This document shows, one piece after another, positions 2,984 through 52,893 of a stretch of DNA of 64,000 nucleotides. Source of the stretch: Shigella phage SP18; sequence record GQ981382; one strand, written 5' to 3'. The notes beneath the pieces are model-generated. The model was not told the DNA's origin. It worked only from the letters and a program-made list of their open reading frames with translations, and made no database searches. Made by a program: the position numbers and the translations under genes. The number at the start of each line of letters is the position of its first letter. The stretch's first letter is position 1.

Positions 2984-4816
2984 TTATAGCGTCGCATTCA
3001 TCCAATCTTTGCGCTGCTGGGAATCTTTACCGAATAGCATTTCGAACAGTTCTTTCCAGTTGTCGGGCAATTGAACAACTTCGAATACCGGTTCAAGCAA
3101 TACGCGTTTATACTCGGAATCTTCCAGAGAGCCAAGCCCCTTGATATATCGAATGGTATGCTTCGGAAGTTTATCCTTAGCTTCTTCATAGTCAGGAAGA
3201 GAATAGAACCATTCTTGTTTATCTTTGAGCTGCGCAATAATAACAGGAGTTTTCACAAAGCGAATTCGTCCTTCATGGAACAGTTCTGGCCAGTTACTGA
3301 AAAACGCCAATAATGACGGATAGATACTACCGACACCATCCACATCCGCATCTGTCATGATAGCAATGTTTCGGTAATTCATATTCTCGGCCGGTTGTCC
3401 AATCGTTAAACCAGTAATCGCACACACATCAAAGGCTTCAGCGTTCTTCATAACTTCAACAGCTTTCAAACCCCATGTGTTTTTAAACTTACCACGTAAT
3501 GGATAAGCACCTTGCAATTCACGGTCACGAACCTTGATAAATGGACCAGTTGCAGAATCACCTTCGGTCAGGAACAGAGTCGTTTCCAACTTATCATTGC
3601 CCCATTCGTTGGCCTTAATATGCTTCTGTACCTTGGCCTTTGAAGCTTTCTTATTTGCCTTAGTCTCTGCTGCTTTCTCTGCAGCCAATTTACGGGCTAA
3701 TGCAGCTTCAACAATCGGCATAATCAGCGGTTCATTTTTCAGAATAGCTTGCGCGATTTTCTTAGCATCAATCTTAATGTGATTTCGAATTTCACCAGCC
3801 GGAGAAGTCAATCGCTCCTTAGTCTGGGAATCAAATCGCATGTTGCTCATATCGCGGATGAACATAAGCATGGTGAGACATTCTTTAACTCGTGCCTTGG
3901 TCACCTCGATGCCTTTATATTTGCGCTTAATCGCCGGCTGAAGGTGTTCACAGATATCATCCATAACACATTCAACGTGGTGTCCGCCATTCTTTGTATG
4001 AATGTTGTTGACATAAGTCAGCTGACGGAAACCATCTGGGCTGGTCGTAAAGGCCATCGATACTGTATCAGTTTCCTGGATAACAACTTCGGTTCCGAAT
4101 TGCTTGGAGAACTTCTTGAAATTACCATCAACCTTTTTACCATTAAAGGTGAACTGAATATCCGGATAAACAACCGCGAGAGTCTGCAGACGGTCCAATG
4201 TAATATCCAGATAAATCTGGGACAGACTATTTTCTTCAAAGTGACTAAAATCTGGAACAAATATAACAGTTGTACCTTTGCCCTTAGATTTCTTGGTCGA
4301 CCAACCTTTGTTTTCCATACCGTTGGAGCAGTTAACGGTGATTTCATTTGCACCATCAGCGGTAATCCCTGTGAACAATACGGAGAAAATATTGGTCAGA
4401 GAAGACCCGACGCCATTCATCCCGCCAGTTTTACGTTCAGCATCATCGCCGAAGTTACCACCAGCTTTTGGAATAGTCCATGCTGCAACAGGGCCAGGGA
4501 TTTGTTCACCGTTTTGGTCTGTAACCATTGCTTGAGGAATACCACGACCATTATCAGAAACCGAAATCTGATTATCTTTAATTTGAACATCAATTTTATT
4601 GGCAAATTTAAAACTGGTGCGAATTGCTTCATCAACAGAGTTATCGATAATTTCATCAATCAGTTTTACAATACCAGGAACATAGCTTACGGACTTATAT
4701 TCACCAAACAAGAATCGCTCATGCGCTTCATTTGAACTGGAACCAATATACATCCCGGAACGTTTTTTGATATGCTCGACGTCCGAGAGTACTTTAATTT
4801 CATTATTAATCATCAT
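2984..4816 (-). CDS. 39: DNA topoisomerase II large subunit, fused 39+60 form (GyrB-like ATPase plus Toprim)
   Basis: 610 aa; GHKL ATPase motifs (IDNSVDEA, DNGRGIP, GGMNGVGSS), Toprim EGDSA and MTDADVDG; continuous ORF, no gene-60 split. Confidence 0.9.
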   Translation of the reverse strand: MMINNEIKVLSDVEHIKKRSGMYIGSSSNEAHERFLFGEYKSVSYVPGIVKLIDEIIDNSVDEAIRTSFKFANKIDVQIKDNQISVSDNGRGIPQAMVTDQNGEQIPGPVAAWTIPKAGGNFGDDAERKTGGMNGVGSSLTNIFSVLFTGITADGANEITVNCSNGMENKGWSTKKSKGKGTTVIFVPDFSHFEENSLSQIYLDITLDRLQTLAVVYPDIQFTFNGKKVDGNFKKFSKQFGTEVVIQETDTVSMAFTTSPDGFRQLTYVNNIHTKNGGHHVECVMDDICEHLQPAIKRKYKGIEVTKARVKECLTMLMFIRDMSNMRFDSQTKERLTSPAGEIRNHIKIDAKKIAQAILKNEPLIMPIVEAALARKLAAEKAAETKANKKASKAKVQKHIKANEWGNDKLETTLFLTEGDSATGPFIKVRDRELQGAYPLRGKFKNTWGLKAVEVMKNAEAFDVCAITGLTIGQPAENMNYRNIAIMTDADVDGVGSIYPSLLAFFSNWPELFHEGRIRFVKTPVIIAQLKDKQEWFYSLPDYEEAKDKLPKHTIRYIKGLGSLEDSEYKRVLLEPVFEVVQLPDNWKELFEMLFGKDSQQRKDWMNATL

Positions 4817-4838
4817 CTTTCCTCTTGTGTATGGAGGT

Positions 4839-50015: not shown

Positions 50016-50576
50016 TTAAGAGTTCATAGTTGGGATAACCGAGTTCAGATAAGAGACTAAAACTTTTAGCTCGTCTTTAGTAAATACAACTTCACTTTCA
50101 CCGTCATGTCTTTGGACAATGGACAACAAGTCACGGCCGTTATGTTGATACACAGTCAGTTCAGTATTATAATCTAATTCCTCTTCATCGCCTTCAAACG
50201 TTTCGCTAGATCGAATCAGTGCGTCTTGACCAGGGACTTTCCATTCAACTTCTGGCTTGCATTCTTCCTGGAACAGTTTGAAAATACAATCAAAGAATTT
50301 ATCAGAATCGCTGATGCTCAGACATTTTTCATCTGTTTCAATATTAAACCCAGCGTCGTGCTTATAAATGCGAGCACATACATCGTCGGTAATATCAAAT
50401 ACACCACTAAAACTACCGTTAAGATATTCATCTTTATCCAAAACCATTAAATCATAAAGTGGTTTAATATCAGCGATAGTCAGTACGATTTTATCGTCTT
50501 CTTGACAAAGCTCAATTGCGTTATTAACTACTTCAGCGGTCAGTTCGCCAAACAATTCAGTTGTTTCAATAATCAT
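50016..50576 (-). CDS. hypothetical acidic protein
   Basis: 186 aa ORF. Confidence 0.55.
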   Translation of the reverse strand: MIIETTELFGELTAEVVNNAIELCQEDDKIVLTIADIKPLYDLMVLDKDEYLNGSFSGVFDITDDVCARIYKHDAGFNIETDEKCLSISDSDKFFDCIFKLFQEECKPEVEWKVPGQDALIRSSETFEGDEEELDYNTELTVYQHNGRDLLSIVQRHDGESEVVFTKDELKVLVSYLNSVIPTMNS

Positions 50577-50586
50577 TTTCTGTTCC

Positions 50587-50877
50587 TCAACGGTTATGTT
50601 TTAAAATACTATAAAGCGCTTCTACTTGGCTTGCATCCAGGTAAATAACATCATCATCTTGCTCAATGGAAATCCCGCCAGTATTACCTTTAACAAAATT
50701 ACATTCGCACACTTCAACTGGGCGGTATACGTCACCAACTGGATGCTCAGGCTCCAGAACAATCACACCATTTTCAGAATTACCACTTGGGTCATATAAC
50801 ATTACAGTTTCCTCGCTAACCATGAAAAGAATAAACCAATTAAAACAGGCCCTACAGCCATTGTTAACCAAGCCCAA
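50587..50877 (-). CDS. hypothetical protein
   Basis: 96 aa ORF. Confidence 0.45.
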   Translation of the reverse strand: MGLVNNGCRACFNWFILFMVSEETVMLYDPSGNSENGVIVLEPEHPVGDVYRPVEVCECNFVKGNTGGISIEQDDDVIYLDASQVEALYSILKHNR

Positions 50878-50893
50878 GGTTCAAGATAGTAAA

Positions 50894-51151
50894 TCATCTC
50901 ATGCTCCTGTGCCAGCAATTTCGTGGCTCACGTTTAAAAATTTTGTCGTGCATTGATTGACAACCAACACAATATATCACACCTTTAATCGCTTGTCTCC
51001 GCGCTTCAGGAATTTTTTCGTCGCAGTCAAAACAGAATTCAGCAGACTCCCTTTCAACTGCAACTTGCGCTCTCGCATGGGTGATAGCGGCTTGGACAAC
51101 CGCTTCCATCTCTAACTGTTCAGCACCATCTTTTGCAAATCCAACAGCCAT
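50894..51151 (-). CDS. DksA/TraR-family C4 zinc-finger protein
   Basis: 85 aa; CFDCDEKIP...CVGC C4 motif typical of TraR/DksA. Confidence 0.55.
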   Translation of the reverse strand: MAVGFAKDGAEQLEMEAVVQAAITHARAQVAVERESAEFCFDCDEKIPEARRQAIKGVIYCVGCQSMHDKIFKREPRNCWHRSMR

Positions 51152-51333
51152 TATTCTTTCAACTCATTCAGATACTCAACCAAGGCTGCTTTAGAGTTAG
51201 CCAAATCTCGTTTACACTGTTCTATTCCAGAATATGAATAACCTTCACAATATTCAACAGCCAGGTCATTGGATGCATTTTCAATGTGCCAGGCGAGTTT
51301 GATAATTTTTTCAATCTGTTCAGTAGTTAACAT
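51151..51333 (-). CDS. small hypothetical protein
   Basis: 60 aa ORF. Confidence 0.4.
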   Translation of the reverse strand: MLTTEQIEKIIKLAWHIENASNDLAVEYCEGYSYSGIEQCKRDLANSKAALVEYLNELKE

Positions 51334-51337
51334 AATA

Positions 51338-51574
51338 TCACCAGTATTTTTTGATGGTAGAAATTAATTCTTGGACTTGAGTGTTCTTCAGCTTGCACCC
51401 ACAACCTTTTAAGGTGTCTTTAAGGAGCCATGGTTCCTTGAGCTCGTCCTTTTCCAGGCGGATTCTATATCCTCTGTAATCAGCAAATATGCTTCCGTCA
51501 TCAAATATCTTAATTTCAAGAATATGATTATTGGTTTCATATTCCAATGAAACCATGGTATTTGTAAGTTTCAT
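51338..51574 (-). CDS. hypothetical protein
   Basis: 78 aa ORF. Confidence 0.45.
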   Translation of the reverse strand: MKLTNTMVSLEYETNNHILEIKIFDDGSIFADYRGYRIRLEKDELKEPWLLKDTLKGCGCKLKNTQVQELISTIKKYW

Positions 51575-51777
51575 TATTCCACCACATATGATAATGAGAA
51601 AATTGCTGATGAAAGATGGGTAGCATCTTCTTCACACAGTTCAAATGGAGCTTTCTGTAAGAGTTCAACCACTTCTTCATCAGTGGCACTGTCCATAAAG
51701 ATTGCATAATCATTAAGATAGATAACAACCTCATCACCAGTATTAACTGCATCAATCTTGATATTTTTAATTCTCAT
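51574..51777 (-). CDS. small hypothetical acidic protein
   Basis: 67 aa immediately downstream of promoter cassette. Confidence 0.5.
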   Translation of the reverse strand: MRIKNIKIDAVNTGDEVVIYLNDYAIFMDSATDEEVVELLQKAPFELCEEDATHLSSAIFSLSYVVE

Positions 51778-51805
51778 TGTGTTCTCCTCAGTAGTTGATG
51801 GGATA

Positions 51806-51835
51806 ATAGTACACCCTTTTTATGGTGTTGTAAAC
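51806..51835 (-). promoter_or_regulatory. early promoter (GTTTAC -35, TACTAT -10), near-identical to cassette at 20.05 kb
   Basis: GGTTTACaacaccataaaaagggtgTACTATtatcccatcaactactgaggag. Confidence 0.55.
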
Positions 51836-51878
51836 CCCCTAAATGAAAAAAGGTCCACCCGAAGGCAGACCTTTTGAA

Positions 51879-52262
51879 TTACTCTAATGTTAACAGATAC
51901 TTAGTCTGAAAGAAAACTCCAACGATATCGTCCAGGGTCGATTGAATAGCCTTGGGTACAACTTTATAGACTCTTTCCGAGCTTTTAATCATTTCATCTA
52001 AAAACAAAATTGTATCTTTCGGCAAGTCCGAGGCGGACGGTAATGCAGCTTTGTATTGTTTCCCGCTGTAACCTAACCATTGCTCACTGAACTGGTCGAG
52101 TGGACCTTGGATTTCTGTGAAGTAGAAATCATAAGCTTTATGGCGGGCGTAACTTTTGGTTTCAAGATGGGCGGACTTAAAATAAGCCAAAGAGACTAAC
52201 AACCACCCAATATATGAATCCACCTCAGACCCACGACCCGTTACGAAATCATCAAATTTCAT
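51879..52262 (-). CDS. hypothetical protein
   Basis: 127 aa ORF. Confidence 0.5.
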   Translation of the reverse strand: MKFDDFVTGRGSEVDSYIGWLLVSLAYFKSAHLETKSYARHKAYDFYFTEIQGPLDQFSEQWLGYSGKQYKAALPSASDLPKDTILFLDEMIKSSERVYKVVPKAIQSTLDDIVGVFFQTKYLLTLE

Positions 52263-52545
52263 CTTCCAATTTTACCTTCATTAATTTAGCGTACTCTCTC
52301 GCCGCAGCTTTACCATCGCTTTTGCAGGTAATTTCAGTTTCGCATTGGCTTTTGTTGTTCCATTCAGTCTTGATAAACGCCCAGAACTGTTCGGATTGGT
52401 GTACGCTTGGTTCTTTGAATTGCGAATAAATCTTCATCGCACTATCTGCATATTGGGTAAACTTCCCATCTGTTGCAGAGGACAGATTTGGACCTAAACA
52501 GCCCAGGATTATTAGACTTAATGAAAGTCCTCGAATAAGGTCCAT
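52252..52545 (-). CDS. lipoprotein of unknown function
   Basis: 97 aa; signal peptide with lipobox LGC. Confidence 0.5.
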   Translation of the reverse strand: MDLIRGLSLSLIILGCLGPNLSSATDGKFTQYADSAMKIYSQFKEPSVHQSEQFWAFIKTEWNNKSQCETEITCKSDGKAAAREYAKLMKVKLEDEI

Positions 52546-52617
52546 AAGGACTCCTATTGTTGGTCATGATTACGCTTTGCAGCCTTAACATAGCGGAATA
52601 CTAGTTAGTAACTGTAT

Positions 52618-52893
52618 TTATAGACGTTTAAAATTAAAGCAGTACTCTGAAAATAAACCTGCAAAATTACGTTCAACCCAGACCCGTTGTTTTGGACTGG
52701 TGACCGTTGACAAATAGTATGCTTGTTGCAGGCTTATTCCGTTTTTATTGGGGCACTCTTTGTTGAACGAGTGATAGGTACTTGCAACGATTTCGACTTC
52801 GCGCTCATACCTTTCCTGGTCCTGTTGCATAGGAACAAAAACCAAAACCAGGAATATCAAAATAGAGATATACGTCCAAACCTTGTATACCAT
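52618..52893 (-). CDS. membrane-anchored hypothetical protein
   Basis: 91 aa with N-terminal TM helix. Confidence 0.5.
   Translation of the reverse strand: MVYKVWTYISILIFLVLVFVPMQQDQERYEREVEIVASTYHSFNKECPNKNGISLQQAYYLSTVTSPKQRVWVERNFAGLFSEYCFNFKRL

Follow-up and report, generated by a model that had tools for sequence, protein, structure and literature searches.

By its sequence similarity, the 64-kb window (the whole stretch of DNA analysed here, 64,000 nt) is assigned to a T4-like Tevenvirinae genome. Over the 3-kb stretch around the gene described below, identity to T4-like phages of E. coli (P479, PSD2001, VR20, VR7 and others) is 90–97%, and VR7 is classified in Tevenvirinae, Gaprivervirus. 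The window carries all of its large ORFs on the minus strand, an orientation also seen in the early/middle region of T4. The gene is part of the mobD hyperplastic segment and is found between rI/tk and nrdC.11. No RNA element was detected at the locus, since Rfam and tRNA scans over the entire window gave nothing.

On the minus strand, the locus begins with the rI antiholin gene (52252–52545) and a gene for an rI.-1-like DUF5856 protein (51879–52262). A terminator scan identified an intrinsic-terminator-like hairpin with a 12-bp stem and a T run (51848–51875, minus strand), which would close this upstream rI/rI.-1 unit. A run of small ORFs follows, headed by a putative sigma-70/T4-early-like promoter site, GTTTACA-17-TACTAT, found in a promoter scan (51806–51834, minus strand). 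T4 has a counterpart of this arrangement upstream of mobD.5, where a hairpin precedes a promoter-like site of similar type. After the promoter site come a mobD.5-like ORF, a 78-aa ORF, a mobD.3-like DUF7438 ORF and the gene for a small C4 zinc-finger protein. The gene is followed by a 31-aa hydrophobic ORF, a DUF7189 ORF, mobD.1 (whose product matches the Pfam "y05I-like putative transcription factor"), a membrane protein gene and the nrdC.11 nucleotidyltransferase gene. A second terminator-like hairpin (48351–48332, minus strand, terminator scan) is located after nrdC.11.

The zinc-finger gene is tightly packed between its neighbours. The stop codon of the mobD.3-like ORF, identified as DUF7438 by Pfam, overlaps the zinc-finger ATG in the sequence TAATG (51149–51153, minus strand, from the sequence and ORF coordinates), an overlap that suggests translational coupling of the two. 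At the other end, the ATG of the 31-aa hydrophobic ORF (50802–50897, minus strand; PHROG 12165), which is also annotated in relatives, overlaps the zinc-finger TGA as ATGA, and its Shine-Dalgarno sequence AGGAG falls within zinc-finger codons 82–83. In a search of 50500–52700 (minus strand), neither T4 late (TATAAATA) nor MotA-box middle promoter motifs were found within the operon; the sole late-type motif in this interval, at 52622, is upstream of rI. Since a T4-early-like promoter site stands upstream and late and MotA motifs are absent within the run, early expression by the host sigma-70 polymerase can reasonably be expected.

The zinc-finger ORF (50894–51151, minus strand, stop included) begins in the ORF list with ATG and, after 85 codons, stops at TGA; it encodes the product MAVGFAKDGAEQLEMEAVVQAAITHARAQVAVERESAEFCFDCDEKIPEARRQAIKGVIYCVGCQSMHDKIFKREPRNCWHRSMR. 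An earlier note on this DNA had reported an 85-aa ORF with the C4 pattern CFDC...CVGC, and both are present at exactly these coordinates, on the minus strand. The pattern reads C40-F-D-C43, 17 residues including IPEARR, and C61-V-G-C64. The C4 zinc ribbon formed around I47-P48-E49-A50-R51-R52 corresponds to nt 50960–51034 (minus strand) and is marked by invariant columns in the alignment: C40, C43, C61 and C64 are identical in all 49 aligned relatives, in the CxxC-(17)-CxxC arrangement of PF01258.

The DksA/TraR-family assignment, likewise proposed in the earlier note, is borne out by PF01258, PHROG 54, NCBIfam, PDB, Foldseek and hhalign. Pfam PF01258 (zf-dskA_traR) matches residues 38–66 with 36.5 bits, above its gathering score of 24.9 (E = 4.9e-9). 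PHROG 54, "DksA-like zinc-finger protein", is a significant match at E = 1.1e-20, with residues 12–77 aligned to profile positions 9–73 of 75. The C4 and family match is far beyond chance, given the PF01258 score above gathering, the PHROG 54 match and more than 400 phage records with full-length relatives. An exhaustive profile search retrieved 2827 cluster representatives at E ≤ 1e-3, of which 360 reached E ≤ 1e-10. It is secure that the 85-aa product is a phage-encoded C4 zinc-finger protein of the DksA/TraR superfamily with a TraR-like size; the ORF list, PF01258, PHROG 54 and dN/dS identify its gene. A defence or anti-defence role was considered and set aside, PADLOC defence models giving no match.

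Within the superfamily the models separate clearly. The top NCBIfam model is the YbiI-type equivalog NF008243/PRK11019, with 77 bits over residues 1–72, below its cut-off of 96. The TraR-family subfamily model TIGR02419 (phage/conjugal plasmid C4 zinc finger) is a near miss, with 52.9 bits against 59.7. The equivalog for conjugal transfer protein TraR, NF010268, gives 31.1 bits against a cut-off of 108, and NF033459, the model for DksA proper, 13.9 bits against 105; neither cut-off is reached. In a PDB sequence search the top match is E. coli YbiI (2KGO, E = 1e-9), aligned from residue 1, and TraR (5W1S, 6N57) is next at 5e-5; these two are the only significant matches. Because NF008243 scores 77 bits against 31 for NF010268 and 2KGO is the best PDB match, the protein is placed by its sequence in a YbiI-like branch, not with TraR proper.

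The fold was predicted with AlphaFold2 from a 49-sequence alignment (mean pLDDT 72). In the model, residues 1–8 are non-helical and of low confidence and residues 9–30 form a helix, followed by the zinc knuckles, a short helix (49–54), a further helix (62–71) and a low-confidence tail. There is a single N-terminal helix and no coiled coil of the type found in DksA proper. The predicted acidic helix 9–30 (nt 51062–51127, minus strand) is, from the model, hhalign and its charge, a candidate counterpart of the channel-entering N-helix of TraR; the net charge of residues 1–24 is −3, equal to that of TraR. The predicted C-terminal helix 62–71 (nt 50939–50968, minus strand) aligns to TraR 59–68 and would correspond to the start of the TraR C-helix. 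It is shorter than TraR 58–73, and a proline and an unrelated tail come next, where pLDDT falls to 53–64.

Foldseek ranked YbiI first (E = 4e-6), with DksA-RNAP complexes lower in the list. Against RNAP-bound TraR, the model superimposes on 5W1S_M with TM-scores of 0.60/0.71 and an rmsd of 2.8 Å over 67 columns, and on 6N57_M with 0.59/0.68. An hhalign comparison with a profile of TraR and lambda Orf73 gave a probability of 99.2% and an ungapped alignment of residues 18–73 with TraR 15–70; the TraR side of this comparison is a shallow profile, since the homologs found for it were all close orthologs with at least 66% identity. The fold is, as modelled, TraR-like.

The features by which TraR acts on RNAP have been described. 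The N-terminal helix with its DxxDxA motif extends to the active site; in the globular C4 domain, P43 and P45 serve in binding, R48 contacts the rim helices and E46, R49 and K50 contact beta-prime Si3; the C-terminal helix touches beta lobe-Si1 (PMC9239242, PMC6970531). The segment I47-P48-E49-A50-R51-R52 is equivalent to TraR I44, P45, E46, A47, R48 and R49, so that counterparts of P45, E46, R48 and R49 are all present. P48, R51 and R52 do not vary among the aligned relatives, and E49 is nearly invariant (at least 90% conserved). TraR P43 and K50 are not conserved, being replaced by K46 and Q53.

The N-terminal tip departs from TraR. Alignments show that codons 1–12 (nt 51116–51151, minus strand) encode MAVGFAKDGAEQ, a clade-invariant tip in place of the DxxDxA of TraR and DksA. 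The segment is identical in every intact copy at 60–99% identity, one of which starts with GTG. The YbiI-like branch, which was defined empirically, is characterised by the N-terminal motif MAxG[FWY]AxDGA, present here as MAVGFAKDGA. A MAxG[FWY] start occurs in 127 of the 150 top family representatives, and DxxDxA upstream of the zinc finger in only 4 of the 150. The functional TraR-like class carries DxxDxA (PMC9239242); here the tip is M-A-V-G-F-A-K-D8-G-A10-E-Q, which keeps only the D-x-A half and has no counterpart of TraR D3. The first Asp of the motif is replaced by G4-F5, position 5 being F or W across the branch, and the tip is about 3 residues longer.

Residues 1–17 are themselves unaligned by hhalign, and extending its ungapped register would place D8, G9, A10 and E11 opposite TraR A5, D6, E7 and A8. 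The spacing to the first cysteine is similar (D8–C40, 32 residues; TraR D6–C37, 31; YbiI D8–C39, 31), which makes D8 and A10 the likely counterparts of TraR D6 and A8. An exact pairing of D8 with D6 was not retained, the MAFFT registers differing between two alignments; the defensible statement from the sequences is that D8-G9-A10, which is nearly invariant, is no more than one residue away from TraR D6-E7-A8. The local D-x-A-x-Q arrangement D8-G-A10-E-Q12 also resembles DksA D74-R-A76-A-Q78. DksA D74 and A76 are functionally critical tip residues (PMC4010833) and the D6N substitution abolishes TraR function (PMC2613031), so the retention of D8 and A10 is meaningful. An intact DxxDxA was proposed as the indicator of DksA-like function, and some C4 family members without it do not work like DksA (PMC9239242, PMC4010833). 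The earlier note had made the conserved acidic tip its refuting check, and the outcome is divided: D8 and A10 stand near the positions of D6 and A8, whereas the full DxxDxA and a D3 counterpart are absent. With such a non-canonical tip, the strength or even the nature of any effect at the active site may differ from that of TraR.

The other departure is at the C terminus. Codons 77–85 (nt 50897–50923, minus strand) encode RNCWHRSMR, a basic tail that contains Cys, Trp and His, is invariant in this clade and specific to it, and was recognised from alignments and synonymous changes. In YbiI-type proteins its place is taken by the tail NRRGSKDSQLR; the ending ...NRRGSKDSQL[RK] typical of the YbiI-like branch is absent from this protein. 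Among the top 150 representatives a ...RRGSKDS... tail is found in 46, and the NCWHRS tail in only one 50%-identity cluster. We take the C-terminal tail of E. coli YbiI to be ...YNRRGSKDSQLR, and a tail of this sequence is directly visible in the bacterial homologs P0043–P0060. The phage clade has ...PRNCWHRSMR in its place.

Selection on the gene was estimated against 20 relatives of the same length. The dN/dS ratio is 0.02–0.15 in the 11 pairs whose dS is estimable (unsaturated), and pN is far below pS in 20 of 20 pairs. In 33 aligned members of the phage clade the invariant or almost invariant positions are residues 1–12, H25-A26-R27, the four cysteines, I47-P48-E49, R51-R52, G57, Q65, D69 and residues 77–85. 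The invariant columns over all 49 relatives are C40, C43, I47, P48, R51, R52, G57, C61, C64 and Q65. Many synonymous changes occur within the protein-invariant segments; Ser83, for instance, is encoded by AGC, AGT, TCT or TCC. Since the codons of the invariant termini differ synonymously, the constraint is on the peptide and not on overlapping signals, and overlapping neighbours or an embedded Shine-Dalgarno sequence are ruled out as its cause. A DNA-level constraint on the tail was also rejected, as a jumbo-phage copy keeps the tail though its next gene starts 65 nt away. The gene is thus under strong purifying selection that includes both termini.

Relatives of the protein were found by tblastn in 709 phage records, of which 435 have at least 80% of the protein covered. 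The phage clade is distributed among T4-like phages of E. coli, Citrobacter, Klebsiella, Enterobacter and Yersinia, and intact copies also occur in the Asteriusvirus jumbo phages of about 350 kb. Phages UPEC07, vB_YenM_P8 and EAWsc9 have genes 92–98% identical to the present one that already bear TraR or DksA zinc-finger annotations; the GenBank labels for such genes are "TraR family C-4 type zinc finger protein" and "DksA C4-type domain-containing protein". DksA/TraR zinc-finger ORFs had been listed for T4-like phages by 2006, as ORF130c of Aeromonas phage 44RR (PMC1524935). In the literature searched, experimental work on a T4-like copy was not found. In this T4-like phage the ORF is a real accessory gene that is under selection.

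Not every phage of the group keeps the gene. Searched with tblastn, the T4 mobD region showed no match to the protein even at E = 10, leaving T4 without a detectable homolog there; T4 mobD.2 and mobD.2a, considered as possible remnants of the gene, are not detectable as such in the same search. Yersinia phage phiR1-RT has a copy that reads as frameshifted, and in Mosigviruses all that is left is a 55-aa chimeric remnant. The last explains a second PHROG match of the protein, phrog_25948 on residues 57–85. Because T4 lacks the gene, the phiR1-RT copy is apparently frameshifted and the Mosigvirus remnant is chimeric, the function is dispensable at the family level.

E. coli YbiI (2KGO; NF008243/PRK11019) is the closest known protein by both sequence and fold. 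It has 88 residues against 85 here, and the two share the N-terminal MAxG[FW]AxD.A, an A-R helix signature and a C4 finger with IPxARR. They differ in that identity is about 35%, the score falls below the equivalog cut-off of 96 bits and the tails are unlike; moreover the ybiI gene is chromosomal, while the present gene is phage-borne and probably early. Overexpressed YbiI was reported to rescue the amino-acid auxotrophy of a dksA-null strain, with data not shown in the source, but not that of a relA spoT strain (PMC2613031). A literature search on YbiI and DksA gave no functional statement beyond the dksA-null rescue.

F-plasmid TraR (5W1S, 6N57), a ppGpp-independent regulator acting at the RNAP secondary channel, has the same N-helix, C4 globular domain and C-helix, but possesses DxxDxA and ends about 9–12 residues earlier, without the C-terminal tail. 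Lambda Orf73, P2 Orf82, VHML Orf8, VP882 Orf61 and X. bovienii Gp34 are likewise small phage-encoded PF01258 proteins. All five of these TraR homologs were active: they bind RNAP, complement a dksA-null mutant and inhibit promoters for rRNA and ribosomal proteins, and the two among them with an incomplete DxxDxA still work, though more weakly (PMC9239242). They belong to temperate phages or prophages and to the TraR-like branch, whereas the present phage is virulent and T4-like, and its gene falls in the YbiI-like branch; lambda Orf73, for example, has D3xxD6xA8, unlike the zinc-finger protein. E. coli DksA shares the C4 zinc-finger superfamily, but the present protein is half its size and has neither the coiled coil nor the ppGpp-binding region.

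The fold, the conserved contact residues, the charge and the precedent of the phage TraR homologs lead us to favour, with moderate confidence, a reading in which the protein binds to the rim helices and secondary channel of host RNAP and does not need ppGpp to modulate initiation. The binding to RNA polymerase would be direct and would not involve DNA binding. The zinc-ribbon domain would dock on the beta-prime rim helices via the conserved I-P-E-A-R-R, the acidic N-terminal helix would enter the secondary channel, with the C-terminal helix and tail pointing toward the beta lobe. Open-complex kinetics would then be altered with no need for ppGpp. Analogy with TraR and lambda Orf73 suggests that short-lived host promoters, among them those for rRNA and ribosomal proteins, might be transcribed less; DksA and the Gre factors might be excluded, and phage transcription favoured early in infection. 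The earlier note had suggested that a phage copy could reprogramme host rRNA promoters early in infection, and such an effect is plausible. For RNAP binding itself, as for the direction of the effect and its timing, we infer from such analogy.

Several points count against binding to RNAP. The full DxxDxA is absent, and the cut-offs of NF008243, TIGR02419 and NF010268 are all missed. The dksA rescue by YbiI needed high expression and the data were not shown, and the phage gene is dispensable. T4-like phages also shut off host transcription by other means, so that inhibiting rRNA promoters may bring little benefit.

The strongest constraint on the protein lies exactly where it departs from TraR, in the MAVGFAKDGAEQ tip and the RNCWHRSMR tail. 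This would fit a YbiI-type function other than TraR-like initiation control, in which the invariant termini bind a different partner (nucleic acid, ribosome or a host protein) and the zinc ribbon is only a scaffold. We regard such a role as possible but rather unlikely. It agrees with the non-TraR N-terminal motif in 127 of the 150 top relatives, many of which have a conserved basic tail absent from TraR, and with the C4 members that lack both DxxDxA and DksA-like function (PMC9239242). However, the IPEARR segment is conserved, its E49 being nearly invariant, the fold matches RNAP-bound TraR, and YbiI itself reportedly rescues dksA-null auxotrophy (PMC2613031). Searches with Pfam and PADLOC found no other domain or partner signature.

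The same termini can be read in another manner. The YbiI-like branch, with its MAxG[FW]AxDGA tip and basic tail, would constitute a mechanistically distinct class of RNAP effectors, recruited from bacteria by virulent T4-like and jumbo phages. This proposal is speculative, and we consider it unlikely. A hook-shaped tip might act at the active site or trigger loop, or the tail might act on DNA or sigma region 1.1, with an outcome unlike the DksA+ppGpp mimicry of TraR. If it is true, the private Cys/Trp/His tail would set the phage clade apart as a variant not described before, and work on this clade could also illuminate what E. coli YbiI does.

It is quite improbable, in our estimate, that the protein only blocks the secondary channel, excluding DksA/ppGpp and GreA/GreB as an anti-stringent or anti-host-factor agent with no DksA+ppGpp mimicry of its own. 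The binding determinants are kept while the effector tip is altered (no D3 equivalent, F/W at position 5, G at 4 and 9), and there is a precedent in Rnk, which binds the channel but acts only by competition (PMC9239242). Yet D8 and A10, the likely equivalents of D74 and A76, are nearly invariant, and the reported dksA-null rescue by YbiI argues for some positive DksA-like activity. Finally, a decaying remnant or chance ORF in a hyperplastic region, with no function of its own, is what the variable mobD region, the lack of the gene in T4, the apparent frameshift in phiR1-RT and the chimeric Mosigvirus fragment might suggest, but the low dN/dS and pN values, the protein-invariant termini with abundant synonymous variation and the intact copies in T4-like and Asteriusvirus phages effectively refute it.

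As genome annotation the result is routine, since the zinc-finger label is already known from related phages. TraR-family proteins enable mobile elements to reprogram host RNA polymerase without ppGpp. Virulent T4-like phages already modify RNA polymerase in many ways, and why such a phage would use a secondary-channel protein is a modest question. The more useful point is that the gene and its T4-like and jumbo-phage relatives sit in the uncharacterised YbiI branch, with the tip and tail as the most constrained parts. The functional data on the family were all obtained with F TraR or with homologs of temperate phages or prophages that have at least part of DxxDxA, and the protein bears on whether the YbiI branch also obeys the DxxDxA rule for DksA-like function.

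Other T4-like genera also harbor copies, in Slopekvirus KP27 (gp032) and Hadassahvirus AbTZA1 (gp238), which already carry a DksA-like zinc-finger annotation. Both are about 40% identical to the present protein and retain the bacterial, YbiI-type tail YNRRGSKDSQLR. KP27 gp032 adjoins the primase gp61, and the AbTZA1 gene is located, as here, between rI and the membrane-protein/nrdC.11 genes.

A copy of the zinc-finger gene is also found in jumbo phages of E. coli, represented by Escherichia phage ph0011, an Asteriusvirus of 348 kb (comparison locus L008, nt 1501–1758). The encoded protein exhibits 65% identity to that of SP18, and both invariant termini, MAVGFAKDGAEQ at the beginning and RNCWHRSMR at the end, are unchanged. 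The neighbourhood of the gene is unrelated. Because a copy of 65% identity with the same termini sits in an unrelated neighbourhood, the sequences point to a horizontal exchange of the SP18-type clade between T4-like and jumbo phages.

YbiI-like genes also occur in other T4-like genera. The bacterial C-terminal tail YNRRGSKDSQLR, which is basic and extremely conserved, is kept almost letter-perfect in Klebsiella phage KP27 (locus L006, nt 1501–1761) and Acinetobacter phage AbTZA1 (locus L007, nt 1459–1725). The KP27 gene lies downstream of an annotated promoter and immediately upstream of the gene for DNA primase gp61. The AbTZA1 gene adjoins rI, the same as in the SP18 window.

Broken and partial copies were observed as well. 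Gp010 of Escherichia phage ST0, a Mosigvirus (locus L003, nt 1459–1626), is a 55-residue chimera, also found in JS09. Its N-terminus, MLYDYTGKSEDGVLELLPE..., is similar to the beginning of the DUF7189 ORF of the SP18 window (MLYDPSGNSENG..., nt 50587–50802), and the zinc-finger protein's C-terminal part supplies the final 30 residues, VIYCVGCQSMHDEIFKREPRNCWHRSMR, in which only the second CxxC is present. Remnants of this type constitute the family phrog_25948, and the C-terminal part shared with this family accounts for the second PHROG match of the zinc-finger protein.

The T4-like contig IMG/VR UViG_2706796257 (locus L021) harbors a short second ORF at nt 2188–2268, about 250 nt upstream of an intact zinc-finger gene. 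The first 17–20 residues are identical to those of the intact gene (MAVGFAKDGAEQLEVEAL...), after which the sequence diverges (...IEKLVEKL*). The short ORF is a duplicated N-terminal fragment, suggesting recombination at the ends of the zinc-finger gene. Four other IMG/VR contigs (L034–L037; for example L034 nt 2501–2542) contain a segment of roughly 30 nt that specifies ...PRNCWHRSMR; its reading frame lacks a start codon and continues into unrelated sequence. In these other viral contigs, the segment has the appearance of leftover DNA from the zinc-finger gene's 3′ end. The ortholog of Yersinia phage phiR1-RT (locus L009, nt 1501–1753) is split between two reading frames, which encode residues 1–39 and 36–85, and the annotation of the locus lists only the 43-residue g033. 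The split is due either to an error in sequencing or to a frameshift that has turned the ortholog into a pseudogene; fHe-Yen9-01, a relative of phiR1-RT, carries an intact copy of 84 residues.

In the SP18 window, an ATGA overlap couples translation of a 31-residue hydrophobic ORF, MIYYLEPWAWLTMAVGPVLIGLFFSWLARKL (PHROG 12165; nt 50802–50897, minus strand), to that of the zinc-finger gene, and the Shine-Dalgarno sequence of the hydrophobic ORF, AGGAG, is located inside the zinc-finger codons for R82 and S83. At nt 51806–51875 (minus strand) a strong terminator-like hairpin, AAAAGGTCTGCCTTCGGGTGGACCTTTT, with a T run is followed at once by a promoter-like site, GTTTACA...TACTAT. T4 displays a hairpin and then a comparable promoter-like site upstream of mobD.5 (locus L004, nt 4723–4820). 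A search of the minus strand between nt 50500 and 52700 for the T4 late-promoter motif identified TATAAATA at nt 52622, upstream of the rI antiholin gene, and none besides.

Two neighbours bear transcription-related labels, by annotation only. The rI.-1-like gene directly upstream of the terminator/promoter pair (nt 51879–52262, minus strand) is assigned to PHROG 858, 'starvation-inducible transcriptional regulator', and Pfam DUF5856. The mobD.1 gene (nt 50016–50576, minus strand), a member of the run of small ORFs that includes the zinc-finger gene, matches the N and C domains of the Pfam 'y05I-like putative transcription factor'.
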